From: an uncultured Eubacteriales bacterium
GTDB taxonomy: Bacteria; Acidobacteriota; Aminicenantia; Aminicenantales; UBA8522
Direction: 5' to 3'
Assembly (NCBI GenBank): GCA_964580435.1
Contig: CAZOKP010000003.1
Coordinates: forward strand, 3,967 to 67,966
DNA length: 64,000 bases
Shown piece by piece: positions 42,498 to 59,349 of this stretch; position 1 is the first letter of the stretch; each line of letters starts with the position of its first letter. The notes under the pieces were generated by a model that worked only from the letters and a program-made list of their open reading frames with translations, was not told where the DNA came from and did no database searches. Made by a program: the position numbers and the translations under genes.

Positions 42498-44363
42498 ATG
42501 AGTCGGGAAAAAACCATCGGAATGTTCTTGGGCGTGGCGTTTGTGTTCTCCCTCGCCCCTACCCTCGAGGCCCAGAGCAGCAACTTTTACGGCGATTTCC
42601 TGCTGGGATATCGATATGTGAACAAGAGCGGCCCCGGAGCCAACTACAAGTATAGAGAGGACTACAACCTCCGCAGCGGGGCTCGCCTGACGAACTTCAC
42701 TCTCAGCTTCTCGCCGGATAACGGGCTCAAAAAGTTCTTCGACCGGCTGGACATCCGGATGTACAACCTTGGCGGAGACCCCTATGAGAACATCACCGTG
42801 GCCATGCAGAAGTACGGCAAGTATCTGATCCAGTATGACCGGAACAAATCGACCTATTTCTATCACGACCTGAACCTGGGCGACGGCGGCATCCCTTACG
42901 ACCTGTACAGGTTTGATTTCGACCGGGTCAGGGATACGGGCCTGGCTAAAGTCTGGCTGACCGGTCAAGCCGACCTCTATCTGAGCTTTGACCGTTACAC
43001 CAAAAAGGGGGACAGCCGGTACCCCCGCGACATCGAAAGACTGGAATTCCAGATGACCGGGCCCATCCAGGAAGAATCCAAGGAAGCCGCTGTCGGTCTC
43101 GACCTCCACTTCAACCGCTACTCCTTTATTTTCGAAGAAAAATTCCTGAACTCCAAGATCGAAAATAGGACCTTCCTTCCCGGCTACCTCGACGGAGGCC
43201 CTAACGCTGAATTTCCCACGGCGCTTTATTATTACTTCCTGAATGAGCCCTACGAGATCAAGTCCAACACCAGTTCCTTCAGATTCAACGCCCGACCGAT
43301 CAGCCGGCTCTTCCTGAGCGGGTCGGCCCAACTCACCCAGCTCGACCTGAACCTGGATTATTCAGAGCGAGCTAAGGGGGTCAATTATCTCGACAGGTAT
43401 TTTCAATACGACATCACCGGCACTGGCAAATTCGAGCGCAACTTTCAGCTCTATGGCCTGGATGTCTCTTACAATCTCTTCGATAACCTCAGCATCGTCG
43501 GGGCCTTTCGCTATCACAACTTCGACCAGACCGGCTCTCTCGAGATAAGCGGCGAGACAGAATCCCAGGATTTCGGGTACAAAACCCTTGGAGTCGACGC
43601 CGGCGTCCAATACCAGTTCTCCCCGAAGTTGGCCATGACCCTCGGCTATCGCTATGAAGACCGGAATCTGGACAACCTGGAGACGGTCACTTTTGAATTC
43701 GACACGGTCAAGAACGGCGGTTTCGGGAACCTTAAATGGGACGTTTCCCGGGCCTTAAAGCTGACCGTTGATTACGAGCGCAGCCAGTACACAGACCCCT
43801 TTACGCTGATCTCCCCGACAGCTTTTGACAGGCTGAGGATAACGGCAAGATACCAGGCCAATAACCTGAGCATCTCGGGGTCCTATCTCTGGAACAACTC
43901 CAAGAGCGAGGTCTTCGAGGATATCTGGAGAGCATCCAAGAACCAGTTCAATCTGCGCTTGGGCTATCATGTCGACCGTTTCAACGCCTCCGGAGGATTC
44001 GCTTACATCCAGGCCAAACGTCAAGGCAACCGGACCGTGAGCTTTCCTCCCTGGTGGACGGGGCCGGGCGGGACTTTCCTTTGGGAGATTCTTTACGAGG
44101 GGAAATCCAGCCTGCTGGACGGCTTGCTCTCTTATGACCTAGACAAGAATTGGAAACTCGGCGGCTATGCCAACTATTATTCCAATACAGGTTCCTGGGA
44201 AACCAGACGGACTGTTCTCAAGGCCTTCGTTGAATATGCTTTTACGGCCGGATATGTGGCCCAGGTCGGCTACAGGTTCGTTGATTATAAAGAGATAAAA
44301 TTCGGCTACAGTGATTACAAAGCCAATATTGTCGAGTTCGCCTTTGGCTATCGCTGGAAATAA
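42498..44363 (+). CDS. Outer-membrane beta-barrel porin, MtrB/PioB/MtoB-like partner of the decaheme cytochrome
   Basis: Signal peptide (…APTLEA/QSS), 621 aa, pervasive alternating aromatic/hydrophilic beta-strand pattern. It ends in the aromatic C-terminus FAFGYRWK. Immediately 3-prime of the MtrA-like gene, as in known porin-cytochrome gene pairs. Confidence 0.6.
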   Translation: MSREKTIGMFLGVAFVFSLAPTLEAQSSNFYGDFLLGYRYVNKSGPGANYKYREDYNLRSGARLTNFTLSFSPDNGLKKFFDRLDIRMYNLGGDPYENITVAMQKYGKYLIQYDRNKSTYFYHDLNLGDGGIPYDLYRFDFDRVRDTGLAKVWLTGQADLYLSFDRYTKKGDSRYPRDIERLEFQMTGPIQEESKEAAVGLDLHFNRYSFIFEEKFLNSKIENRTFLPGYLDGGPNAEFPTALYYYFLNEPYEIKSNTSSFRFNARPISRLFLSGSAQLTQLDLNLDYSERAKGVNYLDRYFQYDITGTGKFERNFQLYGLDVSYNLFDNLSIVGAFRYHNFDQTGSLEISGETESQDFGYKTLGVDAGVQYQFSPKLAMTLGYRYEDRNLDNLETVTFEFDTVKNGGFGNLKWDVSRALKLTVDYERSQYTDPFTLISPTAFDRLRITARYQANNLSISGSYLWNNSKSEVFEDIWRASKNQFNLRLGYHVDRFNASGGFAYIQAKRQGNRTVSFPPWWTGPGGTFLWEILYEGKSSLLDGLLSYDLDKNWKLGGYANYYSNTGSWETRRTVLKAFVEYAFTAGYVAQVGYRFVDYKEIKFGYSDYKANIVEFAFGYRWK

Positions 44364-44381
44364 CACCTCGAGGAGGAGATC

Positions 44382-46703
44382 ATGTTCAAAAGACCATACC
44401 TCTTAGGTCTTCTGGCTGTCCTTTTGATTTCTTCATTCCTGCTGGCGAATTCAGGCAGCCACAAATTCAAAGCTCAATCCAAGGAAGACAAAAATCGAAG
44501 GCTCTGGGCCACCTCGGCCCACGCCGCCAAGGATGACGAGCCTTTCGTCCATTGGAATGACACAGGCTCGATCCCCAAAGAGTGCGCCAAATGCCACAGC
44601 ACGCCCGGCTTCCGTGATTATCTCGGCGTCGACGGCACGGCCGTGGATGTGGTAGAAAATAGCGTTCCTGTGGGCACAACGGTCGAGTGCGCCGCCTGCC
44701 ATTCCGACCCTGACAACGGGGTCGTCCATGACCGCACCTATGCCATCTTTCCTTCGGGCGTGAAGGTCGAAGGACTCGGCCCGGAAGCGATGTGCATGGA
44801 ATGTCACCAGGGAAGGGCTTCGACGAAATCCATCAACAGTTCAATCGCCGGCTCCGGCGTGACTTCAGATGACGACCCCAGCTCCAAGCTGAAGTTTATC
44901 AACGTCCACTACTTTGCCGCTGCCGCCACTCAGCTCGGGACAGTCGTCCAGGGAGGATATCAGTACGCTGGAAAATCGTACGACGCCCGGTTCGCCCATA
45001 TCCCCGGATACAACGCCTGCCAGGTCTGTCATAATCCTCACTCTCTCGAAGTCGACCTAGAAGCCTGCAATACCTGCCATACCGGCGTCAAGGACCCGAA
45101 AGACATCCGCTTTTACGGATCTTTGGTCGACTACGACGGCGACGGGAATATCACCGAAGGCATCTACTACGAGATCGAGACAATCAGGGAGAACCTGTAC
45201 AACAGCATGCGGGCTTACGCCAGGGATGTCGTTGGGAAACCGATCGCCTATGATGGAAATAGCTATCCCTATTTCTTCAATGATAAGAACGACAACGGAG
45301 TTGTTGATTCCGACGAAGCGGACCCCAGCAACGGATACAGCTCCTTTACCGCCCGACTTCTCAAGGCCGCCTACAATCTCCAAGTGTCCGTAAAAGATCC
45401 TTGCCAATATGTCCACAACGGAAAATACATCATCGAGCTCTTGTATGATTCGATCGAGGACCTCAATTCTTCCCGTGGCGCCGGAACAGCCAAGACCGCG
45501 GTTTCGAAACCCCGTCTTACAAGGCCTTTGCAGGCCGACCGCAGGATCAAAGCCGGCGGCCAAGATCGAATCTCTCTCTTGAGGAATGATGATATCCTCA
45601 CCGGGAACCAGGTGGAGTCGTTCGGGGATGACTATTTGCAATATGCGCCTGCCCCCGGCCACGGCCTTGTCCGGACTGACGAAGGCCATTTCGACGGTTC
45701 TGCCGAAGCCTGGAGACACTGGGATGAAGAGGGAGAGGTTCCGTCAAGCTGCGCCAAATGCCATAGCGCCGAAGGTCTCCCCTACTTGCTCGAGAACGGC
45801 AAGATCGACAAGGCCATGGATATTTCTAACGGCCTGCTCTGCATGACCTGCCACATCGTGCCACCCCAGACAAGGCCAGTCGGTCCGGTGAAATTTCCCT
45901 CCGGAGTGAGCGTGGACCTGGGCGACAGCTCCAACCTGTGTCTCAACTGCCATCAGGGAAGAGCTTCAAAATTCTCGGTTGACAAGAGCATCGCCGGCGG
46001 CCCGGGGCCATACGGCTTTACCAACATCCATTATTATGCAGCGGCGGCTTCCTTCTTCGGCTCCGAAGTCCATGGCGGATACGAATTCAGCGGCAAAACT
46101 TATGCCGGGCGCAATATCTACACCAACCACAGCGGACTTTTCACCGATTGTATCGAGTGTCATATGGGGACCAAGAGCTTCAACAGGAAGCACGACGACT
46201 CTGACGCCTTGTTCCACAACGTCCAGACGCCCAACCCCGCCGATTGTGCGCCCTGTCATGGACAGGACATCGCCCAGCCCCATCCCGGTGCTGACCCCGG
46301 CCAGTTCGAGTTCGAGGGGATTCGGCCGGCCCAGACTCCTGACTACGATGCCGACGGAAACAAGAACGAATCCCTGCAGGCTGAGATCAAAGGGCTCGAA
46401 AATGCGCTCTACGCCCAGATTCAGACGTATGGCTCGAATATCGGCGCACCGATTGTCTACAACGAAACAAGCTATCCTTATTTCTTCAAAGATACGAACG
46501 GGAACGGCATTGTGGACCCTGATGAGCTGGATCCCGGCAACGGGTACGAATTCAATGCGCCCATGCTTAAGGCCGCGTATAATTTTCAGATGAGCAAGAA
46601 AGAGCCGTGCGGCTATATCCACAATCCCCGTTATATCGCTGAATTGCTCGCCGATTCTATCGGAAGTCTTGGCGGAAATATGAAAAAGTACACTTGGCGG
46701 TAA
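44382..46703 (+). CDS. Secreted decaheme c-type cytochrome built from two duplicated pentaheme modules
   Basis: Signal peptide and ten CXXCH motifs. Two internally homologous halves each end in …SYPYFF(N/K)D.N.NG.VD.DE.DP.NGY…LKAAYN(L/F)Q.S.K.PC.Y.HN..YI.ELL.DS. No lipobox. Confidence 0.7.
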   Translation: MFKRPYLLGLLAVLLISSFLLANSGSHKFKAQSKEDKNRRLWATSAHAAKDDEPFVHWNDTGSIPKECAKCHSTPGFRDYLGVDGTAVDVVENSVPVGTTVECAACHSDPDNGVVHDRTYAIFPSGVKVEGLGPEAMCMECHQGRASTKSINSSIAGSGVTSDDDPSSKLKFINVHYFAAAATQLGTVVQGGYQYAGKSYDARFAHIPGYNACQVCHNPHSLEVDLEACNTCHTGVKDPKDIRFYGSLVDYDGDGNITEGIYYEIETIRENLYNSMRAYARDVVGKPIAYDGNSYPYFFNDKNDNGVVDSDEADPSNGYSSFTARLLKAAYNLQVSVKDPCQYVHNGKYIIELLYDSIEDLNSSRGAGTAKTAVSKPRLTRPLQADRRIKAGGQDRISLLRNDDILTGNQVESFGDDYLQYAPAPGHGLVRTDEGHFDGSAEAWRHWDEEGEVPSSCAKCHSAEGLPYLLENGKIDKAMDISNGLLCMTCHIVPPQTRPVGPVKFPSGVSVDLGDSSNLCLNCHQGRASKFSVDKSIAGGPGPYGFTNIHYYAAAASFFGSEVHGGYEFSGKTYAGRNIYTNHSGLFTDCIECHMGTKSFNRKHDDSDALFHNVQTPNPADCAPCHGQDIAQPHPGADPGQFEFEGIRPAQTPDYDADGNKNESLQAEIKGLENALYAQIQTYGSNIGAPIVYNETSYPYFFKDTNGNGIVDPDELDPGNGYEFNAPMLKAAYNFQMSKKEPCGYIHNPRYIAELLADSIGSLGGNMKKYTWR

Positions 46704-46840: not shown

Positions 46841-48076
46841 ATGAAGAAAGGATTTTTCCTGATCGCCTTGCTCAGCTTGCTTTTGCCTCCGGCTCTCCGC
46901 GGCCAGGAGTGCCTGGAATGTCATAAAAAGACTACGCCCAACATCGTCGGCGACTGGCTGGAAAGCAAGCACAGCAAAAATGACGTAACCTGTTCTATTT
47001 GCCACGGGGAAGAACACAAGACTGCTGCGGATTTTGCCAAAGCCAGGATCCCCACACCTGAAACGTGCGCTGCCTGTCACGAAGAACAGGTAAGCCAGTT
47101 CAAACGGGGCAAACACGCCTTGGCGTGGGCCGCCATGAAAGCCATGCCTACAGCCCATGCTCAGCCCGTCGCGATGATGGAGGGGATGAAGGGATGCGGC
47201 GGATGCCATAAGATCGGACTGAAAACCGAAGCGGAAATAGAAGAGCTCGATAAAGCCGGCGCTGGATTCGGTCGAGCCTCATGCGATGCCTGCCACACGC
47301 GGCATATTTTCTCCACCGCCGAAGCCCGGCAACCTCAAGCCTGCCAGACCTGTCACATGGGCTTCGATCATCCTCAATGGGAGATGTACTCCGCTTCCAA
47401 GCACGGCGTCCGCTTTCTCCTGAAACAAAACAAGACCCTCCCCGAGTCGGTTGCCGCGCCGACCTGCCAGACCTGCCATATGCAGGAGAAAAACCACGAA
47501 GTCCGGACCGCTTGGGGTTTTCTGGCCGTCCGGCTGCCCATGCCTGAGGACAAGCAATGGGCTGCAGATAGAGCAACCATCCTCCAGGCTCTCGGCGTTC
47601 TGGACCCTGCCGGTAACCCCACAGCAAGGCTCGATGTCGTCAAGGCAGCGGACGTCGCCCGTCTTAGTCAGGAAGCCTGGCAGAAAGAACGGGACAAAAT
47701 GATCGGCATCTGCAACCGTTGCCACAGCGTGAATTTTGCCAAAGCAGAGCTCGAAAAAGGCGACCAGATGATCAAAGAAGTGGACCATCTGATGGCGGAG
47801 GCCATCCTGACGGTCGCGTCTCTCTACAAAGACGGCGTTTTGCCGAAACCGGCGAACTACGCTTATCCGTTTCCCGATCTTCTGACCTTCCATGACGCGC
47901 CGACCGAAGTGGAGCAGAAGCTCTTCGTGATGTTTCTCGAACACCGGATGCGCGCCTTCCAGGGGACCTTCCACGCCAACCCGGACTATGCACTCTGGTA
48001 CGGTTGGAGCGAAATGAGGCGGTCGCTCACAGAGATCCAGACTCTCGCTGCGGCTAAGCGCAAAAACCAAACGTGA
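46841..48076 (+). CDS. Periplasmic octaheme c-type cytochrome
   Basis: Signal peptide and eight CXXCH motifs (CLECH, CSICH, CAACH, CGGCH, CDACH, CQTCH, CQTCH, CNRCH) in 411 aa. Confidence 0.7.
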   Translation: MKKGFFLIALLSLLLPPALRGQECLECHKKTTPNIVGDWLESKHSKNDVTCSICHGEEHKTAADFAKARIPTPETCAACHEEQVSQFKRGKHALAWAAMKAMPTAHAQPVAMMEGMKGCGGCHKIGLKTEAEIEELDKAGAGFGRASCDACHTRHIFSTAEARQPQACQTCHMGFDHPQWEMYSASKHGVRFLLKQNKTLPESVAAPTCQTCHMQEKNHEVRTAWGFLAVRLPMPEDKQWAADRATILQALGVLDPAGNPTARLDVVKAADVARLSQEAWQKERDKMIGICNRCHSVNFAKAELEKGDQMIKEVDHLMAEAILTVASLYKDGVLPKPANYAYPFPDLLTFHDAPTEVEQKLFVMFLEHRMRAFQGTFHANPDYALWYGWSEMRRSLTEIQTLAAAKRKNQT

Positions 48077-48145: not shown

Positions 48146-49501
48146 ATGAAGGCCCTGCTCAATTTTTTCACCTCGGTCCGGGTGGCCATCACCCTGCTGA
48201 TCATCCTCATCTGCGCCTCGATCATAGGAACGCTCATACCTCAAGGGAGAAGCGCGCAGGAATACCTCGTCCGCTACGGCCAGCTCGGCACCCTGCTGGA
48301 GCGGCTCCAGCTCACCAGGCTTTATCATTCCTTCTGGTTTATTGCACTGCTCGCGCTATTTTCCCTGAACATCATCGTCTGCACGCTCGAAAGGCTCTTT
48401 CCCAAATTCCGGCGGACCTTCCGGCCGAAGTTGGAGACCGAACCCAAGAACATTCTCGCTTTGAAAATCAGGGATAAATTCAAAGTCGGCCTGACAGTTG
48501 CCGAAACCAGGGAGATGGTCAAGAAGGAACTCACCCGCCGCCGCTACCGGCTTAGGGAAGCTGAGACCGAAACCAAGCACTGCTTTACCGCCCGGAAGAG
48601 GGACCTGGGCTGGTTCGGGTCCGATATCGTCCACTTGGGCATCCTCGTGATCCTAGCCGGAGGAATCGCCAGCGGACTCGGTGGTTACCGCAAAGACCTC
48701 ACCTTTAGTGAAGGCCAGACTCTTTCCGTTCCCGGGGCGAATTTCTCTGTCCGACTGGACAAGTTCGTCACGGAATACTATCCTAACGGAAGTGTCAAGG
48801 ACTGGAAAAGCCTCCTCACCGTGACTGAGGACGGAAAGCCCCTCTTCCAAAAAGCAGTCGAAGTCAATTATCCCCTAAATCATCAAGGCTACGTTTTTTA
48901 TCAAAGCGGCTACGGTTGGGATTGGGAGCATCCCTCGCTCGAAGTCTGGGTGAAGAAAAAGCAGAACCCGACCTATCTCAAAAAGGTCTGGCTGAAGGTC
49001 GGCGAGAAAACGGCCCTGGAAGGTGAATCCCTTGTGCTCAACGCGCTCCAGTTCATCCCTGATTTCGTCCTCGACGAAAAAAACCAGCCGGCCGCCCGCT
49101 CGTTGGAGCCAAACAATCCGGCGGCTTTCATCGAAGGCTGGGAGGGGCCCGAAAAGGTGTTCTCCGGCTGGATTTTCGCCAAGTTCCCCGATTTTTCACG
49201 CCTCCACTCGGGGGCCAAGGAACCGGATATTTCCCTCGAACTCAAGGACGTCCGGGCGCCCAATTACTCGGTCATCCACGTGGCCAAGGACCCGGGCGTA
49301 TCGCTCATCTGGAGCGGCTGCGTCCTGCTGATGGCGGGGCTCGTCCTGGCCTTTTACTGGCCGACGAGAGAATTGAAGATTATTCTGGAGGACAGCCAGG
49401 GGAAGACAGGCGTCACAGCCGGCGGAATTTCTATTAAGAGCCGGGAGGTCTTTCAAACGGAATTTGAAAGCATCATCAACTCTCTAAGGAAACGCAAATG
49501 A
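48146..49501 (+). CDS. resB: Cytochrome c biogenesis protein ResB/CcsB (System II)
   Basis: N-terminal TM segments (…VRVAITLLIILICASIIGTL…). A large periplasmic domain and a C-terminal TM helix follow. 451 aa. Overlaps ccsA by 4 nt. Confidence 0.8.
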   Translation: MKALLNFFTSVRVAITLLIILICASIIGTLIPQGRSAQEYLVRYGQLGTLLERLQLTRLYHSFWFIALLALFSLNIIVCTLERLFPKFRRTFRPKLETEPKNILALKIRDKFKVGLTVAETREMVKKELTRRRYRLREAETETKHCFTARKRDLGWFGSDIVHLGILVILAGGIASGLGGYRKDLTFSEGQTLSVPGANFSVRLDKFVTEYYPNGSVKDWKSLLTVTEDGKPLFQKAVEVNYPLNHQGYVFYQSGYGWDWEHPSLEVWVKKKQNPTYLKKVWLKVGEKTALEGESLVLNALQFIPDFVLDEKNQPAARSLEPNNPAAFIEGWEGPEKVFSGWIFAKFPDFSRLHSGAKEPDISLELKDVRAPNYSVIHVAKDPGVSLIWSGCVLLMAGLVLAFYWPTRELKIILEDSQGKTGVTAGGISIKSREVFQTEFESIINSLRKRK

Positions 49502-50316
49502 CTGAATCCACTTTTTTCCTGCTTGCTTTCATCCTTTATGCTTTGGCCGCTGCCTTCTACTTTTCCTATCTTTTCTCCAAAAAGGAAAACCGGGCCACGA
49601 TCGGTTTCGCCGTTGCCCTGGCGGGTCTGCTCATCCATACGCTGGCCTTAGTTTTTAGGACGGTCGAAAGCGGCCATGCGCCCTTCACCAACATGTACGA
49701 GTCCCTCTCCTTTCTGGCCTGGGCTTCTATCCTGGCCTTCATCATCATCGAGGCAAAATACAAGGTCAGGAGGCCGGGGGCTTACCTGCTGCTTATTGTG
49801 ATCGCCCTCATGGCCCTGGCGTCTTCGCCGCTCATGCCGAAAGAAGCCACTCCTCTTGTTCCGGCGCTGCAGAGTTACTGGCTCTGGCTGCATGTTTCCG
49901 TTACGCTTATCGGCGAGGCCTTTTTTGCCATCGCCTTCATCACCAGCATCATGTACCTTGCGGCCGACGCCAAAGAACGAAAAGGGAAAGCAGCGAAATC
50001 GGGGCTCACCGCGGAGAGACTTGACTCCATCAGCTACCGCACCATCGCGATCGGTTTTCCGCTCTTCACCTTGGGAGGGCTCGTCTTCGGCATGGTCTGG
50101 GCTTATAAGGCCTGGGGAACCTACTGGAGCTGGGACCCCAAGGAGGTTTGGAGCCTGATCACCTGGTTCGTCTTTGCCCTGTATCTCCACACCCGGATCG
50201 TCATGGGCTGGAAGGGCCGGCGTTCGGCCGCCATCGCCATCATCGGATTTCTCGCTGCCCTCTTCACTTACTTTGGCGTGAATTACCTGCTGGCGGGGCT
50301 GCACAGTTATGCCTGA
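49498..50316 (+). CDS. ccsA: Cytochrome c biogenesis protein CcsA/ResC (System II haem exporter-lyase)
   Basis: Polytopic membrane protein with a Trp-rich WGxxWxWD-type region (WAYKAWGTYWSWDPKEVW), 272 aa. Confidence 0.8.
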   Translation: MTESTFFLLAFILYALAAAFYFSYLFSKKENRATIGFAVALAGLLIHTLALVFRTVESGHAPFTNMYESLSFLAWASILAFIIIEAKYKVRRPGAYLLLIVIALMALASSPLMPKEATPLVPALQSYWLWLHVSVTLIGEAFFAIAFITSIMYLAADAKERKGKAAKSGLTAERLDSISYRTIAIGFPLFTLGGLVFGMVWAYKAWGTYWSWDPKEVWSLITWFVFALYLHTRIVMGWKGRRSAAIAIIGFLAALFTYFGVNYLLAGLHSYA

Positions 50317-50409: not shown

Positions 50410-52422
50410 ATGAAGATGCGGATAACCAAGAAAAGGACCCTTATCTCCCTTGCCGTTCTTGGCTTTCTCCTGCTTCTTTTCATCGCCGCAGCCGAAATCA
50501 CGTCCCAGTCCAGGTTCTGCTCCACCTGCCACTACATGAAACCCTTTTACCAGAGCTGGAAAACCTCCTCCCATGGCAACGTCCAGTGTAGTGTCTGTCA
50601 TTATCCTCCCGGATTGAGGTCCTTCTTCAGGGCGAAGGTGGAAGGATTGATGCAGCTGGGCCGGTATTGGACCAAGCTCTACCTCAAGTCCAGACCCTGG
50701 GCGGAGATTCCGGATGAAAGCTGTCTGCGTCAGGGATGCCACGACACCAGGCTTCTCGAGGGCCGAGTGAAATTCAAGGAGGTCATCTTCGACCACAAGA
50801 TCCACCTCGAGGACTTGAAAAGAGGAAAGAAACTTCGCTGCACGAGCTGCCACTCCCAGATCGTCCAGGGAGAGCATATTACTGTCACCGAGACTACGTG
50901 TTTTATCTGCCATTTTAAAAAGAGCGAACATTACCCCCAGATCGGCCAGTGCTCCCACTGTCACATCCAGCAAGATCTGGTCTCGAAACAAACCTCCCGG
51001 TTCAACCATACGGTCGTTTTCGAAAAAAAATTCAGCTGCGACAAATGTCACAGCCAGGTCGTCGTGGGCGACGGTGCCGTCCCCCGCGAGAACTGTTATA
51101 AATGTCATTTTGAGAAAGAGAGGCTGGATCAATATTCCGACACGGATTTAATCCATTCCACCCATATCACAGCCCATAAGATCGAGTGTAACCAATGCCA
51201 TTTGCAGATTCAGCACAAAATTGTCAAAGACATCGAGACCATCGCCGATTGCCGGACCTGCCACACGGGCTTCCATCAGGCCCAGAAGATTCTGTACACC
51301 GGCGAAGGCGGAAAAGGCATTGCCCATGCTCTGCCCAATGTCATGCTGGAAAAAGGGCTGAGCTGCAAGGGCTGCCACATGTTCCACGAGGAGGCGGGCG
51401 GAAAGTTGGTCAAGAGCGAGACCTCGATCTCGAAGGAGCAGGCCTGCGAATCCTGTCACGGAGCAGGATTCGCTCGAGTTCTCCGGTACTGGCAGGTCTC
51501 GACCGAGAAAAGGCTGAGCCAGATCAGGAGGATCTATCAAAGATCTTCCCAGGAAGTCGGGCTGAGCAAGAGCCCTAATCGGGAAAGGGCCAAGCCATTG
51601 CTTGACGATGCGGCCTTTAACATCGACGTCGTCGAGAGAGGCAAAAGCGTCCATAATATGGCCTACTCACAAGAGCTTCTTCAGGCCGCCATTGCCTATA
51701 TGGAGGAAGCCCTGCAGCTCGTCGGTTCTTCTTATAAGCCAGAAAAATTCCTGCCGGAAACAAAGGACATCCCCTCGCAATGCTCCCAGTGCCACGCCGG
51801 GATCGAAGAGATCAATGGCCGGGTCTTCGGGCTGTCCTTTCCCCACAAAACGCATGTCGTCGGCCAGAAAATGCAGTGTTCGACCTGCCATTCCAATGCG
51901 AAAAAACACGGTGAATTCATCGGCTCCAAAAAACAGTGCGCCACTTGTCATCATCAGGATATCAAGAAAGACTGCGGAAGCTGCCATATCCTCCAAAAGA
52001 CCCTCTATGTGGGAGGGACGTTAGATGGCTGGGAAGTCCCCAAGGATATGATGGCCGAGGCGAACGTCGGCTGTGCCGATTGCCACGCCCTGGACAAAGG
52101 TCAGATCCGCCCGGCCGACAGCTCCACGTGCATGAATTGCCATGAAGAGAGCTACACAAAGACGTTTGCGGAATGGCAGGATGCATATAAAAAGCAGCGG
52201 GATTCTCTCCTCACCAGCCTTGAAGTAAAGAGAAGGCTTAAGCTGCCCGAGGGAGACCGAGCCAAACTTGCCGAGGTCGAGCAGATGCTCAGAAAACTCG
52301 AGGACGACGGAAGCTCCTCCGTTCACAACTCCCAGTTCATCGAAGACCTGTTGACAAAACTTGAACTCCGGATAAAATCTATCCAGGAACAGCCGGCGCA
52401 TGAAGAGACGGACATTCGTTAA
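50410..52422 (+). CDS. Membrane-anchored multiheme cytochrome with NapC/NirT/NrfH-like N-terminus (17 CXXCH + 1 CX4CH)
   Basis: N-terminal TM helix followed by CSTCHYMKPFYQSWKTSSHGNVQCSVCH, as in NrfH/NapC quinol dehydrogenases. Fifteen further CXXCH motifs and one CLRQGCH follow. C-terminal coiled-coil-like tail. 670 aa. Confidence 0.7.
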   Translation: MKMRITKKRTLISLAVLGFLLLLFIAAAEITSQSRFCSTCHYMKPFYQSWKTSSHGNVQCSVCHYPPGLRSFFRAKVEGLMQLGRYWTKLYLKSRPWAEIPDESCLRQGCHDTRLLEGRVKFKEVIFDHKIHLEDLKRGKKLRCTSCHSQIVQGEHITVTETTCFICHFKKSEHYPQIGQCSHCHIQQDLVSKQTSRFNHTVVFEKKFSCDKCHSQVVVGDGAVPRENCYKCHFEKERLDQYSDTDLIHSTHITAHKIECNQCHLQIQHKIVKDIETIADCRTCHTGFHQAQKILYTGEGGKGIAHALPNVMLEKGLSCKGCHMFHEEAGGKLVKSETSISKEQACESCHGAGFARVLRYWQVSTEKRLSQIRRIYQRSSQEVGLSKSPNRERAKPLLDDAAFNIDVVERGKSVHNMAYSQELLQAAIAYMEEALQLVGSSYKPEKFLPETKDIPSQCSQCHAGIEEINGRVFGLSFPHKTHVVGQKMQCSTCHSNAKKHGEFIGSKKQCATCHHQDIKKDCGSCHILQKTLYVGGTLDGWEVPKDMMAEANVGCADCHALDKGQIRPADSSTCMNCHEESYTKTFAEWQDAYKKQRDSLLTSLEVKRRLKLPEGDRAKLAEVEQMLRKLEDDGSSSVHNSQFIEDLLTKLELRIKSIQEQPAHEETDIR

Positions 52423-52825
52423 CTTCTTCTTGGGAGGCTCTCTCGTCGGGACTCTAAGCTCGCTTCTTTATCCCATCATCCGCTATCTCATCCCCCCGCG
52501 TCAGGCTGAGGCGGTGGCAAAGAAAATTGCCGCCGCCAAAGTAGGAGAGTTAGCTCCCAACTCCGCGAAGCTGTTCAAATTCGGGTCCTCTCCCGCCCTC
52601 TTGATTAATACCGCCGAGGGCCAGCTCCGGGCTTTTTCCGCCGTGTGCACTCACCTAACCTGCACGGTCAGCTATGAGAGCGACACCAGCACGCTTTATT
52701 GTCCCTGTCATAACGGCCGGTTCGACCTCGCCGGGAATGTCATATCCGGGCCGCCGCCCCGCCCATTAGAGACTTATGAAATCGAGGTGGTCAGCGGCGA
52801 TATCCTTGTCTCTAAGAAAGCTTAG
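52400..52825 (+). CDS. Rieske [2Fe-2S] iron-sulfur protein (bc-complex type)
   Basis: N-terminal TM/Tat-like segment and Rieske boxes CTHLTC…CPCHNG. The start overlaps the preceding cytochrome gene by 23 nt. Confidence 0.8.
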   Translation: MKRRTFVNFFLGGSLVGTLSSLLYPIIRYLIPPRQAEAVAKKIAAAKVGELAPNSAKLFKFGSSPALLINTAEGQLRAFSAVCTHLTCTVSYESDTSTLYCPCHNGRFDLAGNVISGPPPRPLETYEIEVVSGDILVSKKA

Positions 52826-52826
52826 A

Positions 52827-53900
52827 ATGAGCCAGCTCATTAGGAACGCGGTCGCCTATCTCGAATCCAGATTCCAGTTTTCCGCCCTGGCCGAATTCGG
52901 CAAGAAAAAGAAAGTCCCGGAGCATAAATATTCTTTCTGGTATTACTTTGGCGGGCTGTGTCTTTTTCTTTTCTTTGTGCAGGTCGTTACGGGCATCCTC
53001 CTCCTTTTGTACTACACTCCCTCAGTCGATGCGGCTCATGAAAGCATTCAGTTCATCATGAGCCAGGTCAAATTCGGCTGGCTCATTCGTTCTGTCCACA
53101 GCTGGACGGCCAACATCCTGGTCGGAGCCATTTTCATCCACATGTTCAGCGCGTTCTTTCTCAAGGCCTACCGGCCGCCGCGGGATCTCACCTGGATCAG
53201 TGGATTCTTTCTCCTCATCTTCTTCCTGGCCTTCGGTTTCAGCGGCTATCTTCTTCCCTGGAATGAACTCTCGTTTTTCGCCACCCGGGTGGGAACGGAT
53301 ATCGCCGGCGTTATCCCTTACATTGGCAAAGCCCTCAAAACGTTCATTCTCGGAGGCCCGGAGGTTTCCGGCGCCACCCTGAGCCGGTTCTTCTGGCTTC
53401 ACGTGGCTGTTCTCCCGGCGATTGCGTTCGTCGTCCTGGGGATCCATATCTTCCTGGTCCAGGTCCTGGGGATGAGCAAGCCGATCGGGATCTCCGAGAG
53501 GAAGGAGATCTCTTTCTTCCCGACGTTCATCCTCAAGGACGCCCTGGTCTGGCTCCTCGTCTTGACTGCCATCGGCGTCCTCTGCGTCTTTTTCCCTTGG
53601 GAAGTGGGCCAAAAGGCCGACCCTTTCGCAGCGACGCCGATCGGCATCAAGCCCGAATGGTATTTCACCTTCATGTTCACGACACTCAAGCTCATCCCCC
53701 CTCACATTTTCTCCCTGGAAGGTGAGGTTCTGGCCATCCTGGGATTCATGCTGGGCGGATTGCTCTGGATGCTCGTTCCCTATCTTGACCGGAGGGCCGG
53801 CCGGGAGACGAAGAGTCCTGTTTTTTCAGGGGCAGGTTTTCTTATTCTGCTCTATATCATTGTCATGACGGCTCTGACCTACCTTGCACCCCGCATATAA
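52827..53900 (+). CDS. Cytochrome b of a bc-type complex (b6/subunit IV-like, fused)
   Basis: Polytopic with conserved haem-ligand His context (…SVHSWTANILVGAIFIHM…FGFSGYLLPWN…). The ATG at 52827 is 2 nt after the Rieske stop. The track ORF starts further upstream at 52776. Confidence 0.8.
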   Translation: MSQLIRNAVAYLESRFQFSALAEFGKKKKVPEHKYSFWYYFGGLCLFLFFVQVVTGILLLLYYTPSVDAAHESIQFIMSQVKFGWLIRSVHSWTANILVGAIFIHMFSAFFLKAYRPPRDLTWISGFFLLIFFLAFGFSGYLLPWNELSFFATRVGTDIAGVIPYIGKALKTFILGGPEVSGATLSRFFWLHVAVLPAIAFVVLGIHIFLVQVLGMSKPIGISERKEISFFPTFILKDALVWLLVLTAIGVLCVFFPWEVGQKADPFAATPIGIKPEWYFTFMFTTLKLIPPHIFSLEGEVLAILGFMLGGLLWMLVPYLDRRAGRETKSPVFSGAGFLILLYIIVMTALTYLAPRI

Positions 53901-53919: not shown

Positions 53920-55206
53920 TTGAAAGTGAAAGAGAACAAAGAACGGGACAAAAACCGGATGAGATCGAAGCTCGTCTCTGTTGTCTCATTTTTGTTCCTC
54001 CTGGCCCTTCCTCTCTCGCTCTTCGGCCAAAAAAATTCCTGCCTGGAATGCCACAAGGAGATGGATGATCAGAACCTGCGCGCTCCTGTGGATGGATTCG
54101 CGACGGATGTTCATCGGCAATTCGGTCTGGGCTGCCAGGACTGCCATGGAGGCAACCCCCTGCAGGATGACGTGGGACTGGCCAAGGACAAGTCCTTCAA
54201 GGGGGCGCCCGGGAAAGCCAAGGTGCCGGAATTCTGCGGCTCCTGCCATTCCAATTCCGAGTACATGAGGCGCTTCAATCCAAATGTACGCGTGGACCAG
54301 CTTCAGACCTACTGGACGAGCAAGCACGGCGAGCTCCTGAGAAAAGGCGACACGAATGTCGCCGTCTGCACGGACTGCCATGGAATTCATGGGATTCAAG
54401 CCTCCAATTTCCCCAAATCCTCGACCTTCGCCTGGAACATCCCCCAGACCTGCGGCCGTTGCCATTCCAGCCAGGATGTGATGAAGGCCTACGGCATTCC
54501 CGTCAACCAAGTCGACGATTATAAACACAGCGTCCATGCGACCGCCCTTTTCGATAAAAAGGACCTCTCGGCGCCGGTCTGCAATGACTGCCATGGAAAT
54601 CACGGCGCTGCACCCCCTCAAGTTACGTCAATCGCTTTTGTCTGCCGGCAGTGCCATCCGAGCGCCGGAGACCTCTTTACTCAAAGCCCTCACAAGGCTG
54701 CTTTCGACGGACTGGGGATTTCGGAATGCGAAGCCTGCCACGGCAATCACAAGATTCTCGCCCCCACCGACGAGATGCTCGCCGGAGGACGCAACGACGT
54801 CTGCAGCCAGTGCCATGACACCGGGACCAAGCCTTATGAGACCGGGCTCGAGATGAAGCGGAAGCTCTCGGGCTATGTGGCCACATTTCAAACCGCCGAA
54901 GACCTTCTCGAAAGAGCCGAAAAACAGGGCGTCGAGGTCAGCGATCCTCGGTTCAAGCTCCAGGAGGCCTCCACGGCCTTGATCCTCGTCCGGAACCTGA
55001 CCCACGGCCTTTCCCTCACGGACATGGAAGCGAAGCTCGCTGAAGGGGACAACGTCATCGCCGAGGTCAAAGCGCTCGGCGGCGCCGCTTTGAAGGAAGC
55101 GAAATTCCGCAAGACAGGCCTTGTCATCACCACCGTCTTCATCTTCCTTCTCGCCCTGGCCCTTTATTTCAAGATCCGCGAGCTCCAGTCGCGACCCAAG
55201 GCCTAG
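53920..55206 (+). CDS. Nonaheme c-type cytochrome with C-terminal transmembrane anchor
   Basis: Nine CXXCH motifs and a C-terminal hydrophobic helix (GLVITTVFIFLLALALYF). The real start may be the internal Met near 53950, which is followed by a signal peptide. It follows the Rieske/cyt b genes directly. Confidence 0.7.
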   Translation: MKVKENKERDKNRMRSKLVSVVSFLFLLALPLSLFGQKNSCLECHKEMDDQNLRAPVDGFATDVHRQFGLGCQDCHGGNPLQDDVGLAKDKSFKGAPGKAKVPEFCGSCHSNSEYMRRFNPNVRVDQLQTYWTSKHGELLRKGDTNVAVCTDCHGIHGIQASNFPKSSTFAWNIPQTCGRCHSSQDVMKAYGIPVNQVDDYKHSVHATALFDKKDLSAPVCNDCHGNHGAAPPQVTSIAFVCRQCHPSAGDLFTQSPHKAAFDGLGISECEACHGNHKILAPTDEMLAGGRNDVCSQCHDTGTKPYETGLEMKRKLSGYVATFQTAEDLLERAEKQGVEVSDPRFKLQEASTALILVRNLTHGLSLTDMEAKLAEGDNVIAEVKALGGAALKEAKFRKTGLVITTVFIFLLALALYFKIRELQSRPKA

Positions 55207-55519: not shown

Positions 55520-56041
55520 ATGAAAAAGATCATTGTGCTTATCGTCATCATAGTTGCGATTTTGCTCATCAATCTTTTGGGCCAGAACTTCACCTATGTG
55601 GGATCGGCCAAGTGTGCGATCTGCCACAAGACGGAAACACAGGGCCAGCAGTATCCGATCTGGCAGAAGTCCAAGCATTCCATGTCCTTCGCCGCGCTCA
55701 GCTCTCCTGAGGCTGCTCCAAAAGCCCAGGCCGCCGGAGTGCAGAACCCGGCGGAAAGCCCCCAGTGTCTCAAATGCCATGCACCCCTCTTCGAGAAGGC
55801 CGCCGAACTCAAGGCCGAGGGCGTCACCTGCGAGGTCTGCCACGGCCCGGGAAGCGAATACAAAAAACTCACCATCATGAAAGACAAAGCCCTGGCCCAG
55901 AAGAACGGCCTGGTCCTCTATGAATCTTCGGATGCCGCTAAAAAACACTGCCTGACCTGCCATGAGAATGCTCACGGCACGAGCTTCGATTACGCGGCAG
56001 CCTGGGAAAAGATCAAACACGACAAACCGGCCGCAAAATAG
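55520..56041 (+). CDS. Small tetraheme c-type cytochrome (periplasmic, 174 aa)
   Basis: ATG with GGAGG 4 nt upstream, signal/anchor MKKIIVLIVIIVAILLINLLG, four CXXCH motifs. The track ORF 55121..56041 is over-extended at the 5-prime end. Confidence 0.7.
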   Translation: MKKIIVLIVIIVAILLINLLGQNFTYVGSAKCAICHKTETQGQQYPIWQKSKHSMSFAALSSPEAAPKAQAAGVQNPAESPQCLKCHAPLFEKAAELKAEGVTCEVCHGPGSEYKKLTIMKDKALAQKNGLVLYESSDAAKKHCLTCHENAHGTSFDYAAAWEKIKHDKPAAK

Positions 56042-56050: not shown

Positions 56051-57331
56051 TTGGCGATCATTTCCTGGATGCGAAAACCTGAGGTTGGCGTTTTATTCCT
56101 TCTGATTCTCGGGGCCTTCCTGTGGGCCGGTCCAGAAAAGACCCCTTCTTCGAACGCCCAGTGCTTGGCCTGTCACGGTTCCCAAGCCGCGGTCAGCGAA
56201 AAACTCAGGATCAATGAAAAGAACTTCCTCGGGTCGGCGCACGCATCCCTCGCCTGCACCGATTGCCACATGATCCAGCCGGGAGAGAGGGAAGGCGAGA
56301 TCCCGCATAGAAAGACTCTTCCGGATGTCAATTGCACAGCCGCCTGTCATCGTGAAAGCGGCCGGATCGGCACCGGACTGACTCCTCTTTCCTACCCCGA
56401 CAGCGTCCACGGCCGAGCCTATCTCGAAAGAGGAGTCAGGGAAGTGGCCAAGTGCTGGGACTGTCACGGAAAGCACAATATCAGGCCCGTTTCTGATCCC
56501 GAGTCCTCAGTCAGCAGGAAGAACATCCCCCTGACATGCTCGGCCTGTCATGAGGATATGCACGTCGTCATCAAGTACAACATCCACAGCGAAATGCCCT
56601 ATCACGAATACATGAAGAGCGTCCACGGCAAGGCCCTTTTTGAGAAAGGGCTTGTCCAATTCGCCGCCGTCTGCACCGACTGCCACGGCGTCCATGACAT
56701 CAAAGGCGTCGGCGAGCCCCATCTGATGGCCAAGCAGCCCCAGACCTGCGGCCGCTGCCACGAGCTCATCTTTGACGAGTACAAGCAGAGCCTCCACGGC
56801 CAGCAGGCCCTCGGCGGGAATGTTGATGCTCCGTTCTGTGTCGACTGCCACGGAGAACACGGCATCGCCTCGCCTAAGGAAGAAGGCTCCCCTACTTCTG
56901 TCAACAAGGTCCTCGATACCTGCTCGGCCTGCCACGCCCGGCCGGAGATCATGCAGAAATACGGCGTTCCCGAAGACCGGATTGCCACGTTTATCGACAG
57001 CCTGCACGGGATCGCCGTCGGGTTTGGCTACAAAGCCGCGGCCAATTGCACGAGCTGCCACGGCGTTCACGATATCAGGCCGGCCTCTGATCCCCTGTCC
57101 AAAATCAGCCCGGCCAACCTGCGGAAGACCTGCGGACAGCCCAGCTGCCATCCGAATATGCCAGAAAAAATTGCCACGGCCAAGATTCATATCGGCGCTG
57201 CTCAAAAAAACCCCGCCGCTCTCTTTTATGTTCAAAGGGTGCTCCTCATCCTGGTCATCGCCGTTCTCGTCATCACCGTGCTCTGGTTCATTCCCGGTTT
57301 CATCAAAAAAATGAGGCTCTTGAAAAAGTAG
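56051..57331 (+). CDS. Multiheme c-type cytochrome (9 CXXCH + CX3CH + CX4CH) with C-terminal TM anchor
   Basis: Signal peptide and repeated HG…C..CHG.H.I….DP.S…N…TC..CH units. It is a paralog of the next gene and of 53920. C-terminal helix VLLILVIAVLVITVLWFIPGFI. Confidence 0.7.
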   Translation: MAIISWMRKPEVGVLFLLILGAFLWAGPEKTPSSNAQCLACHGSQAAVSEKLRINEKNFLGSAHASLACTDCHMIQPGEREGEIPHRKTLPDVNCTAACHRESGRIGTGLTPLSYPDSVHGRAYLERGVREVAKCWDCHGKHNIRPVSDPESSVSRKNIPLTCSACHEDMHVVIKYNIHSEMPYHEYMKSVHGKALFEKGLVQFAAVCTDCHGVHDIKGVGEPHLMAKQPQTCGRCHELIFDEYKQSLHGQQALGGNVDAPFCVDCHGEHGIASPKEEGSPTSVNKVLDTCSACHARPEIMQKYGVPEDRIATFIDSLHGIAVGFGYKAAANCTSCHGVHDIRPASDPLSKISPANLRKTCGQPSCHPNMPEKIATAKIHIGAAQKNPAALFYVQRVLLILVIAVLVITVLWFIPGFIKKMRLLKK

Positions 57332-57335
57332 CGCC

Positions 57336-58580
57336 ATGGGTCAAGGCAAAGCTGTCTTTCTCGGGGTCGTCTTTCTTTTCTTCGGCGTGGCCTCGCCCTT
57401 TCTCCTCTCCCAGTCGAACGAGGACTGCCTCACCTGCCACGGAGACGCCGAGCTTAAGTCCGAAGCAGGGAAATCCCTTTTCTTGGATAGCGAGAAATTC
57501 CTGGCCTCAAGCCACGGCAAGGCGGAAATCTCCTGCGTCGATTGCCACGCCGACCTCGCCAAAATTAAGGATTTTCCGCACTCTTCTCCGTTGAAACCCG
57601 TTGATTGCAGCCGGTGTCATGAAGCGGCCGCCCGAGAATTCCAGAAAAGCGCCCATTATGCGGCCACGGGGACCGGGGAAAACGCTCTGGCTGTCAGCTG
57701 CAAGGACTGTCATGGAACGCATGACATCAAGGGCAAGTCAGATTATGACTCAGCCATCTTCCCCATCAACCTTCCCTCCACCTGCGAGAAATGTCATCTC
57801 GAGAGGGTGGCGGCCAAGAAAGGACCTGGTTTCGTCGGTCAATACAGGGAGAGCGTTCACTTCAAAGCCCTCGAAAAATCCGGGCTGACGATGTCGGCCA
57901 ACTGCAGCAACTGCCACGGAGCCCATGACATCAAAAAAGTTTCCGACCCGCTCGCCCCGGTCGCCCGCAAGAACATCATCAAGACCTGCGGAATGTGCCA
58001 CGTCGGTATAGAACGAGACTATCTCGAGGGAGTGCACGGCAAGGACTATGTCAAAGGCATCAAGGATGTTCCCGTCTGCACCGACTGCCACAGCGAGCAC
58101 GATATCCTCTCGCCGCAGGACCTGAACTCCACGGTATATGCAACCAAGGTTGCGGAGGTCTGTTCCCGCTGCCATGACAACATGGCTTTGAGCCGGGAGT
58201 ACGGCTTCCTGACTTCGCGCCTGAAAACTTACAACCAAACCTTCCACGGGACCGCCTCGAGATACGGGGAAACGCGCGTGGCCAATTGCGCCTCCTGCCA
58301 CGGTTTCCACGGCATCCGGCCATCTTCGGACCCGAAATCCTCCATTAACCCGGAAAACCTGCCCAAAACCTGCGGGAAATGCCATCCCGGCGCCAGCCGC
58401 CACTTCGCTGAGGGCCAGGTTCACGTCATCCCCGAAGAAATTGTCACGGCCAAATATAGGTCTGCCCATCTTGTCAAGAACATCTATATTATCGTGATTT
58501 CGATTATTATCACGGTCTTCCTCATTTTTATCGCCGCGGACCTGTTCAGACGGATTATTAGAAAGGAAAAACATGGCTAG
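57336..58580 (+). CDS. Undecaheme c-type cytochrome with C-terminal TM anchor
   Basis: Eleven canonical CXXCH motifs and the same repeat unit. C-terminal helix IYIIVISIIITVFLIFIAADLF. It overlaps the next gene by 8 nt. Confidence 0.7.
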   Translation: MGQGKAVFLGVVFLFFGVASPFLLSQSNEDCLTCHGDAELKSEAGKSLFLDSEKFLASSHGKAEISCVDCHADLAKIKDFPHSSPLKPVDCSRCHEAAAREFQKSAHYAATGTGENALAVSCKDCHGTHDIKGKSDYDSAIFPINLPSTCEKCHLERVAAKKGPGFVGQYRESVHFKALEKSGLTMSANCSNCHGAHDIKKVSDPLAPVARKNIIKTCGMCHVGIERDYLEGVHGKDYVKGIKDVPVCTDCHSEHDILSPQDLNSTVYATKVAEVCSRCHDNMALSREYGFLTSRLKTYNQTFHGTASRYGETRVANCASCHGFHGIRPSSDPKSSINPENLPKTCGKCHPGASRHFAEGQVHVIPEEIVTAKYRSAHLVKNIYIIVISIIITVFLIFIAADLFRRIIRKEKHG

Positions 58581-59349
58581 TTCTCCCCTTGTCCGCGACG
58601 ACGAGATCTTCCTGCGGATGAATCTCGCCGAACGGATCCAGCACTATCTCCTCATCGCCACGTTCTTTCTGCTCATGGTCACGGGGATTCCCCTTTTCTT
58701 CTACGAATTCAAGGCCTTCAAGTGGTTCTTCCCGACAGAGCAGGTTTTCTATATCCGGGGGATCATCCACAGGATTGCCGCGGTCGTTTTGATCATAAAT
58801 CTCATTTGGCACCTCTTTTACGCGACTCTGACGGCCCGGGGCCGGAATAACCTCAAGGTCATGATCCCCAAATTCCGCGACGGCAAAGACGCCTTTGAAC
58901 TTTTCTGGTACAACGTCGGGTTAACCCGCTTCCTCTACAGGCTGGGGTTCTTTCAGAAATTCTTCGAAACCCACCCCTACTGGCTTTTCCAGAACCCGCC
59001 CCTTTTCGGGCGCTATAATTTTATCGAGAAGTTCGAATACTGGGCCGTGGGCTGGGGCTCGGTCGTGATGATCATCAGCGGCTTCTTCATGTGGAATGTG
59101 GAGCTTTCGCTCCGCTTCTTCCCCCTCTGGGTCCATGACATCCTGGTCATGGTCCACGGCTACGAAGCCCTGCTGGCCTTTCTGGCGGTCATCATTTGGC
59201 ACATGTACAATGTCCATCTCAACCCCGAGGTCTTCCCCATGAGCAAAATCTGGCTGAACGGCAAAATCACGGGGAAAGAGCTCCGGCTGCTCCATCCTCT
59301 CGAATACCAGAAGATTGTCGAGGAACGGAAGAAAAGCCTCCGCCCGTAA
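58573..59349 (+). CDS. Dihaem b-type cytochrome, membrane subunit (FdnI/HydC/cytochrome b561-like, PF01292-type)
   Basis: Four to five TM helices with His pairs in characteristic positions (RIQHYLL…, IIHRIAAV…, HDILVMVHGYEA…, WHMYNVH). It is the last gene of the cytochrome operon. Confidence 0.6.
   Translation: MASSPLVRDDEIFLRMNLAERIQHYLLIATFFLLMVTGIPLFFYEFKAFKWFFPTEQVFYIRGIIHRIAAVVLIINLIWHLFYATLTARGRNNLKVMIPKFRDGKDAFELFWYNVGLTRFLYRLGFFQKFFETHPYWLFQNPPLFGRYNFIEKFEYWAVGWGSVVMIISGFFMWNVELSLRFFPLWVHDILVMVHGYEALLAFLAVIIWHMYNVHLNPEVFPMSKIWLNGKITGKELRLLHPLEYQKIVEERKKSLRP

Follow-up and report, generated by a model that had tools for sequence, protein, structure and literature searches.

An 18-haem cytochrome with a NapC/NrfH-type head and duplicated OcwA-like modules in an Aminicenantes multihaem operon

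Within a 64,000-nucleotide stretch of contig CAZOKP010000003.1 (assembly GCA_964580435.1, positions 3,967 to 67,966; hereafter the window) from an uncultured bacterium of the Aminicenantales, the gene at 50410..52422 (+) encodes a membrane-anchored protein of 670 residues with 18 sites for haem c. We propose that this protein is a quinol-linked wire with NrfH-type quinol entry, long enough to span the periplasm and serving extracellular electron transfer in this organism, a reading to which we assign a probability of roughly 0.55. The polypeptide consists of a transmembrane (TM) anchor, a NrfH-like tetrahaem head, a c7-like trihaem connector, a first module of five haems with a helix bundle and a second module of six haems with a bundle. 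The proposal builds on the haem motifs, the homology of the head, the homology of the modules to OcwA and OmhA, an internal duplication, the breadth of the family and its synteny; from these we infer quinol oxidation, the direction of flow, a periplasm-spanning length and the partners.

A NapC/NrfH-type head with an unusual haem 3

The open reading frame (ORF) is complete, starts with ATG and has an AGGA-like ribosome-binding site about 12 nt 5' of it. Seventeen CXXCH motifs (Cys at 37, 60, 144, 164, 181, 210, 229, 260, 281, 319, 346, 458, 490, 510, 522, 555 and 574) and one CX4CH motif (C105-LRQG-C110-H111, that is CLRQGCH, 50722..50742, +) together use all 36 cysteines of the protein; in a protein of 670 residues with 36 Cys and 39 His, chance alone should yield about 0.1 CXXCH. 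All 18 motifs are invariant across 95 homologues of 34-90% identity. The count of 17 CXXCH plus one CX4CH given in an earlier note on this DNA is thus borne out, with the ORF exact and every Cys accounted for. That note also placed 13 more haem motifs and CLRQGCH behind an N-terminal tetrahaem unit; in fact 14 further CXXCH follow the tetrad, because the tetrad itself is made of three CXXCH and the CX4CH, giving 18 sites in all. A Pfam search with the long antisense ORFs over the same DNA returned no match, and those opposite the upstream ccsB and this gene (up to 494 residues, for example 49648-51132, -), being without a family match, were set aside as spurious and probably non-coding.

A Kyte-Doolittle scan reveals a sole hydrophobic segment, residues 10-28 (50437..50493, +), which aligns with the TM helix of NrfH and lies within a helix of residues 2-31 in the AlphaFold2 (AF2) model, so that the topology check called for in the earlier note yields one N-terminal TM helix. 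Five Lys/Arg residues stand ahead of it (N-terminus MKMRITKKRT), and this Lys/Arg-rich stretch argues for an anchor with its N-terminus inside and a haem domain outside, the orientation needed for attachment of c-type haem.

Residues 12-152 (50443..50865, +), with haems 1-4, form a NapC/NirT/NrfH-like tetrahaem module that is putatively quinol-interacting by homology. Pfam family PF03264 matches them with 36.0 bits against a cut-off of 24.1, over profile positions 13-168 of 174, and it was likewise found in 38 of 38 diverse family members tested. The NrfH model TIGR03153 follows the same stretch (E 5.6e-11, 42.6 bits, positions 7-136 of 138); the NapC/NirT model TIGR02161 gave no match to the protein. 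Among PDB sequences, NrfH of D. vulgaris (2j7a_C) matches best, at E 1.5e-7 when the single sequence is the query and at 53.7 bits when the family profile is, and NapC of E. coli MG1655 aligns by BLASTP (E 6e-7) colinearly over the four haem sites. In a Foldseek comparison the AF2 model pairs with NrfH over some 155 columns, with a probability of 0.99 and a target-normalised TM-score of about 0.5. The NapC/NrfH character that the earlier note read into the N-terminus therefore stands: the alignments to NrfH and NapC are significant and colinear, and profile searches uphold the similarity.

The residues that surround the quinol site in characterised relatives can be followed into this head. The haem 1 motif CSTCHYM (C37-M43, 50518..50538, +) is of the CXXCHxM type found in NrfH and NapC, and aligns with C43..M49 of NrfH and with CISCHEM of NapC. 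K76 (50635..50637, +) lies as far from haem 2 as K82 does in NrfH, and aligns with the conserved Lys near the quinol site of NapC (K82/K83 in NrfH; the CymA counterpart is K91). Both M43 and K76 are invariant across the 95 homologues. The roles of the Met, Asp and Lys in NrfH are set out, from the NrfH structure, in a preprint on ImcH (10.1101/2023.05.03.539133). Judged by its sequence, the head keeps the hallmarks of the membrane-surface quinol site of NapC/NrfH proteins and would be expected to oxidise quinol.

The CX4CH motif aligns with CRNCH, haem 3 of NapC. Its two Cys and its His, whose conservation the earlier note had wished to see checked, are invariant across the 95 homologues; among more distant representatives the motif is present in 107 of 150, with the consensus C[LM][RQK]xGCH, and in some homologues a plain CXXCH takes its place at the same column (P0207, P0208, P0212, P0246, P0265). 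CLRQGCH is therefore a genuine haem site with a two-residue insertion. The alignment makes it the third haem of the NrfH-like tetrad rather than, as the earlier note had it, an additional site, and the protein has 18 haem sites.

NrfH, NapC, CymA and TorC resemble the 18-haem protein in their single N-terminal TM helix, in the CXXCHxM haem 1 right behind it, in the order and spacing of four haem sites, and in the Lys after haem 2. They differ from it in carrying four haems (five in TorC) on 150-390 residues, against 18 on 670 with a CX4CH at haem 3; moreover, no NrfA, NapAB or TorA partner gene adjoins the gene described here. Orthology to NrfH was rejected, since the score lies below the equivalog cut-off and nrfA is missing (no cytochrome of the operon has a CXXCK motif).

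Duplicated wire modules in a widespread family

Behind the head, haems 5-7 make up a c7/c3-like trihaem connector (50875..51051, +), with Pfam matches to Cytochrome_C7 at residues 125-185 and to Cytochrom_c3_2 from residue 206. It is followed by module 1, an OcwA/NrfA-like pentahaem unit (haems 8-12) with a three-helix bundle at residues 354-438 (51079..51744, +), and by module 2, six haems (13-18) with a second three-helix bundle at residues 582-656 (51769..52377, +). The family profile matches OcwA of Thermincola potens (6i5b_A) over profile positions 207-445 (domain i-E 1e-19, whole-sequence E 4.9e-23), and the stretch matched in OcwA is its last five haems and C-terminal three-helix bundle. 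Profile positions 453-665 match OmhA of Carboxydothermus ferrireducens (6qvm_A) and GSU1996 (3ov0). The two modules are related to each other: residues 224-424 align with 454-648 by BLASTP (E 3e-11), and both copies close with a bundle that bears an invariant G-x-H-N (H415-N416 and H639-N640), a motif also shared with the OcwA/OmhA group, and hold a near-invariant P-x-x-M (M312 and M548), which they have in common with OcwA. Such a modular build fits the account of multihaem evolution by 'grafting and pruning' (PMC9250108).

An AF2 model computed from 95 diverse sequences has a mean predicted local distance difference test (pLDDT) of 79 and a predicted TM-score (pTM) of 0.58, and replaced one from 45 close homologues (pLDDT 61, pTM 0.37), which was dropped. 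Both bundles exceed a pLDDT of 87, that of module 1 lying at 87-97. Foldseek was used only for its ranking and probabilities; ranked by probability, MccA, OmhA, NrfA and NrfH come out on top, and ONR is also listed.

Does this similarity to reductases point to an enzyme? OcwA and OmhA are NrfA-related terminal reductases of Gram-positive cell surfaces, without the NrfH-like head or TM anchor, and the protein could be imagined as a fused, membrane-bound NrfHA-like enzyme in which a five-coordinate haem 8, placed like haem 5 of OcwA with its open site, reduces nitrite, hydroxylamine or sulfite, with the head as built-in electron donor. Haems 8-12 and their bundle do align with the OcwA module that bears a five-coordinate haem, NrfA, ONR and MccA are among the Foldseek matches, and H200 and H289 align with OcwA H282 and H380, one His of each of the His-His pairs positioned over the open haems of OcwA. 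However, the OcwA His-His motifs at its two open-site haems are not kept here (H289 is followed by Gln; coordination is not readable from the alignment), and no CXXCK motif occurs in the protein. The 95-sequence alignment holds 16 invariant or near-invariant His as well as M312 and M548, which should suffice to six-coordinate every haem except haem 1, including the 14 after the head. The number of modules, furthermore, ranges from one to three across the family, a variation that is wire-like rather than active-site-like. Sufficient ligands and variable module number together suggest a wire, and we regard an enzymatic role as very improbable.

The variation is apparent on a large scale. A search of a set of 5.8 billion sequences gave about 2000 homologues at E <= 1e-5, the closest (60-90% identity) being labelled Candidatus Aminicenantes; full-length alignments are obtained with homologues of 90-30% identity. 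An exhaustive search of 1.84 billion representatives at 50% identity gave 1992 matches at E <= 1e-3 and 383 at E <= 1e-30. Haem-motif counts among the representatives peak at 18 (62 proteins) and 12 (30 proteins), with smaller groups at 15, 21, 24, 27 and 31; one OcwA-like module is present in proteins with 12 haems, two in those with 18 and three in those with 24 (for example P0132), a progression that fits a wire of adjustable length. The remark in the earlier note that the protein is unusually large thus holds against the characterised NapC, NrfH and ImcH proteins, but not within its own family, where 18 haems are commonest and relatives reach 24-31 motifs.

When one genome per GTDB species was scanned, relatives appeared in at least 430 species, and the family extends over more than 15 phyla. 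The best 80 loci, all of them from metagenome-assembled genomes, belong to Aminicenantes, Calditrichota, Zixibacteria, Ignavibacteria, Bacteroidota/Rhodothermales, Marinimicrobia, Gemmatimonadota, Latescibacterota, Nitrospinales, Binatia, Eisenbacteria, several classes of Acidobacteriota, Armatimonadota, WOR-3, Acetothermia and Hydrothermae. Database names for these proteins are generic ('NapC/NirT family cytochrome c', 'cytochrome c3 family protein', 'nitrate/TMAO reductase-like tetraheme cytochrome c subunit'), and a literature search, of incomplete coverage, for an 18-haem or octadecahaem NapC/NrfH protein or for Aminicenantes multihaem systems found no description of the family; a multi-omics paper on Melioribacter likewise contained nothing on the subject. 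Some members have cytoplasmic extensions ahead of the TM helix: P0192 has a response-regulator receiver domain, P0162 a cyclic-nucleotide-binding domain, and P0165, P0229 and P0243 have about 870 residues without a Pfam match, which hints at regulated or sensory variants. Several genomes hold two paralogues in a single locus. In L061 (7001-8710 and 12122-14062) and L069 (202-1767 and 5223-7061) each paralogue adjoins a pair of b-type and multihaem genes, and in L017 (5114-8932) tandem paralogues share b561 genes upstream and Rieske/cytochrome b genes downstream.

The earlier note had likened the protein to ImcH and CbcL. Like it, ImcH of Geobacter sulfurreducens is an inner-membrane cytochrome related to NapC/NirT/NrfH with more than four haems, and it is a quinol entry point for extracellular electron transfer (10.1101/2023.05.03.539133). 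In a comparison made by description only, ImcH differs in having three TM helices instead of one, seven haems (5-10 are reported for its homologues) instead of 18, and a His/Gln haem 1 where the protein described here has CXXCHxM; the two OcwA-like modules set this protein apart as well. The ImcH label therefore does not fit the architecture, and CbcL is not derived from NapC at all. A CbcL-type assignment was rejected, because the protein has no b-type domain; an FdnI-like cytochrome b is encoded by a separate gene at 58573-59349.

A cytochrome operon and its conserved linkage to b-type complexes

From 40974 to at least 59349 (+) the window carries a tight array on a single strand, with intergenic distances of -50 to 316 nt, in which nine c-type cytochromes contribute about 81 haem motifs. 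Three distinct putative quinol-interacting modules are encoded: the NrfH-like protein, a Rieske/cytochrome b pair, and an FdnI-like cytochrome b paired with an 11-haem cytochrome.

The Rieske 2Fe-2S protein (52400..52825, +; PF00355, with a PetC TM anchor) begins before the 18-haem gene ends, its start overlapping the stop by 23 nt, and overlaps in turn by 50 nt with the gene for cytochrome b (52776..53900, +), which is of the fused b6/subunit IV type with PEWY (PF00033, PF13631, PF00032; ExtP and b6 models). Next comes MHC428 (53920..55206, +), a 9-haem cytochrome with a C-terminal TM anchor whose homologue in most phyla lies between cytochrome b and the 18-haem protein. A small c554-like tetrahaem (55520..56041, +; PF13435 E 7e-13, Cyt554 model 43.7 bits), which often adjoins homologues of the 18-haem gene, precedes the multihaem proteins MHC426 and MHC414 with C-terminal TM anchors (56051..58580, +). 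MHC426 (426 residues, 56051-57331, +) has nine CXXCH, one CX3CH and one CX4CH. The gene after these encodes the FdnI/HydC-like dihaem cytochrome b (58573..59349, +; PF01292 and formate dehydrogenase gamma models). In its make-up it is this cytochrome b with MHC414 (11 haems, C-terminal TM anchor), and not the 18-haem protein, that matches CbcL/CbcBA of Geobacter, and we interpret the two, on their sequences, as a putative split CbcL-like pair.

Proteins encoded in the window were compared by tblastn with the best 80 of the loci from the at least 430 species. In one arrangement Rieske, cytochrome b, MHC428-like and 18-haem-type genes are contiguous on a single strand, as seen in Zixibacteria, Calditrichota, some Ignavibacteria, Acidobacteriota, Binatia, Gemmatimonadota, Eisenbacteria, Armatimonadota and Hydrothermae; the Aminicenantes order is ResB, CcsB, 18-haem protein, Rieske, cytochrome b, MHC428. 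A second arrangement, typical of Ignavibacteria, Rhodothermales, Bacteroidota and Marinimicrobia, has MHC414-like and FdnI-like cytochrome b genes with the family gene behind or ahead of them. A cytochrome b lies within 3 kb on the same strand in 39 of the 80 loci and an FdnI-like b within 2.5 kb in 31, both being present in eight; 62 loci have a same-strand b-type partner, and the 18 with neither are in many cases on truncated contigs. The c554-like gene is immediately adjacent in 13 of 80. Such near-universal linkage to b-type quinol oxidoreductases implies that the protein works either in parallel with them or as their output subunit.

Rieske/cytochrome b genes amid multihaem cytochromes have precedents, among which the R/b complexes of anammox bacteria offer a further cluster for comparison. 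Geobacter ExtMNOPQ (PMC5877670) and the Mtr-PetAB cluster of Zixibacteria RBG-1 (PMC3903129), the latter proposed for metal redox, likewise place them beside large multihaem cytochromes and a porin-type protein; clusters of multihaem and cytochrome b genes are described for MBNT15 (PMC9386147), and a Rieske/cytochrome b and epsilon-Hao locus for Caldithrix (PMC5317091). None of these four papers describes a NrfH-headed protein of 12, 18 or 24 haems. The cytochrome b of the window scores best with the ExtP model, and MHC428 and MHC426 match the ExtN model weakly. Orthology of the 18-haem protein to ExtM, the 12-haem protein beside ExtNOPQ, was rejected as it has no match to the ExtM model.

The role of output subunit can be stated more fully. 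The protein might be an obligate part of a supercomplex with Rieske/cytochrome b or the FdnI-like b, acting as collector and output wire: the b-type module would oxidise quinol and pass electrons through the C-anchored multihaem cytochrome to the 18-haem protein, whose NrfH-like head would mainly hold it in the membrane and offer haems for docking, or else provide a second quinone site for regulation or bypass. We hold this to be a tentative alternative, clearly behind the wire with its own quinol entry. It accords with the gene overlaps of 23 and 50 nt, with the Rieske-cytochrome b-MHC428-like order that is kept contiguous across many phyla, with the 62 loci of 80 that have a same-strand b-type partner, and with earlier proposals of multihaem acceptors for Rieske proteins (PMC5317091). 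Yet invariance of M43 and K76 is unexpected of a vestigial quinol site, the partner varies by lineage between Rieske/cytochrome b and FdnI-like b, 18 of 80 loci have no partner in reach (many contigs being truncated), and synteny is no proof of physical association. A c1-like subunit of a bc complex was also considered and rejected: such subunits are C-anchored with one or two haems, while the protein is N-anchored with 18, and MHC428 after cytochrome b fits that part better.

The upstream part of the array opens with an Rrf2-family regulator (40974..41432, +; PF02082 E 1.9e-33, TIGR00738) at the head of the operon. Then follow an MtrA/DmsE-like decahaem of 335 residues (41480..42487, +; TIGR03508 184.5 bits against a cut-off of 192.2, positions 2-257 of 258), a beta-barrel of 621 residues (42498..44363, +; PF13505) and a decahaem of 773 residues with an MtrC/MtrF-like domain (44382..46703, +; PF22113). 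With the trio at 41480-46703, this Aminicenantes genome seems, by sequence, to encode a porin-cytochrome conduit of the MtrAB(C) type. This context fits the earlier suggestion that the protein is an entry point for extracellular electron transfer; given the conserved Rieske/cytochrome b linkage, it may not be a stand-alone quinol dehydrogenase.

Between the trio and the haem lyase genes lies an octahaem of the hydroxylamine oxidoreductase (HAO) family, 411 residues long (46841..48076, +; PF13447 E 2.6e-28), whose best PDB match, 6h5l_A (E 4.8e-34), is an entry titled 'similar to hydroxylamine oxidoreductase'. Close copies, of 66-77% identity by tblastn, occur in several Aminicenantes loci and also in L015 and L045. 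Within the flanks examined, the HAO-like gene and the Mtr-like trio are largely restricted to Aminicenantes loci. Directly upstream of the 18-haem gene stand ResB and CcsB of system II cytochrome c maturation (48146..50316, +; PF05140 E 7e-81, TIGR03144 270 bits, above cut-off), an adjacency that Aminicenantes loci show and those of other phyla lack. One possibility is that the two proteins serve this haem-rich operon, or its CX3CH and CX4CH sites, as a dedicated haem lyase. Beyond the cytochrome operon, at 59496-62130 (+), are two flavoproteins of the geranylgeranyl reductase family, the second of which (FAD419) has a weak MenJ-like match; the pair could act on the quinone of these complexes, altering its isoprenoid tail.

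The HAO-family octahaem, the c554-like tetrahaem and the NapC/NrfH-like protein occur together in the operon, and this trio bears a likeness to the HAO-c554-cM552 set. Electrons might accordingly flow inward, the direction proposed for ammonia oxidisers with their cM552 and for iron oxidisers with CymA/ImoA: taken from Fe(II), minerals or partner cells, they would reduce quinone at the NrfH-like head, and Rieske/cytochrome b would re-oxidise the quinol, its electrons going to a reductase in the periplasm, for instance the HAO-like octahaem. A similar cluster in Zixibacteria has been interpreted as iron oxidation (PMC3903129), and NapC/NirT proteins are thought to be bidirectional (PMC6295460). 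Direction, however, is unreadable from sequence, the operon has neither a terminal oxidase nor a nitrate reductase, and the HAO-like gene is missing from most family loci. Aminicenantes are, moreover, generally described as anaerobic heterotrophs. Overall we find reverse flow improbable, less so than an enzymatic role and more so than the supercomplex.

Several points weigh against outward transfer from a quinol site of the protein's own. Its TIGR03153 score misses the NrfH equivalog cut-off (42.6 against 134.2 bits) and NrfH Asp89 has no clear counterpart, so that a functional quinol site is argued from M43 and K76 only; in structure space, Foldseek gave no match in the PDB with E <= 1e-3. 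Other modules for quinol oxidation nearly always stand next to the gene (of 80 loci, 39 have Rieske/cytochrome b and 31 FdnI-like b), neighbours that a self-sufficient quinol dehydrogenase would not need. As the Mtr-like trio is found mainly in Aminicenantes loci, extracellular transfer may not be the role of the whole family. Experimental or biochemical work on any family member was not found in the literature searched.

A model for electron transfer and its implications

How might such a protein work? In the model that we favour, of a quinol-linked wire, it would be held in the cytoplasmic membrane by its one N-terminal helix, with all 18 c-type haems in the periplasm. Haem 1, with its CXXCHxM motif, and the conserved Lys would form a site for menaquinol/menaquinone at the membrane surface. 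Electrons would then pass through the c7-like trihaem connector and on through the two tandem OcwA/NrfA-like modules, each braced by its three-helix bundle, giving a fixed haem wire that may cross much or all of the periplasm; by analogy with known multihaem structures, 18 haems in a roughly linear array could span most of it. The wire would link the quinone pool to the MtrA/porin/MtrC-like outer-membrane conduit of the same operon. It would lie beside, and perhaps dock to, Rieske/cytochrome b with the 9-haem cytochrome, and the split CbcL-like pair. Parallel working of this kind has an analogue in Geobacter, where ImcH, CbcL and CbcBA operate at different potentials (10.1101/2023.05.03.539133).

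New in this work are the CX4CH as haem 3 of a NrfH-like tetrad, a wire of duplicated OcwA-like modules, a broad family that had not been characterised, and its linkage to Rieske/cytochrome b and FdnI-like b. The possibility, favoured less, that the protein is the output subunit of an undescribed supercomplex in more than 15 phyla, made of Rieske protein, cytochrome b, C-anchored multihaem cytochrome and NrfH-headed wire, with Qo/Qi and NrfH-type sites and a reach set by module number, would have consequences of its own: if it is true, a Q-cycle would be coupled directly to long-range periplasmic electron transfer, and electron flow could be switched or split according to the potential of the acceptor.

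What does the quinol-linked wire mean for the organisms that encode it? To our knowledge, how electrons leave the cytoplasmic membrane and cross the periplasm is largely obscure beyond Shewanella and Geobacter. For many uncultured lineages, Aminicenantes, Zixibacteria, Ignavibacteria, Gemmatimonadota and Calditrichota among them, the family may supply an answer, as it joins in one polypeptide a putative quinol site and a fixed haem wire of modular length, encoded together with cytochrome b complexes. Conserved and fixed to a defined haem position of NrfH, the CX4CH offers a convenient handle on the maturation of non-standard motifs by system II. If our interpretation is right, the protein would represent a new architecture among NapC/NrfH proteins and a test case for Rieske/cytochrome b complexes that feed low-potential multihaem chains, and its gene would be a marker with which to predict extracellular electron transfer in metagenomes.

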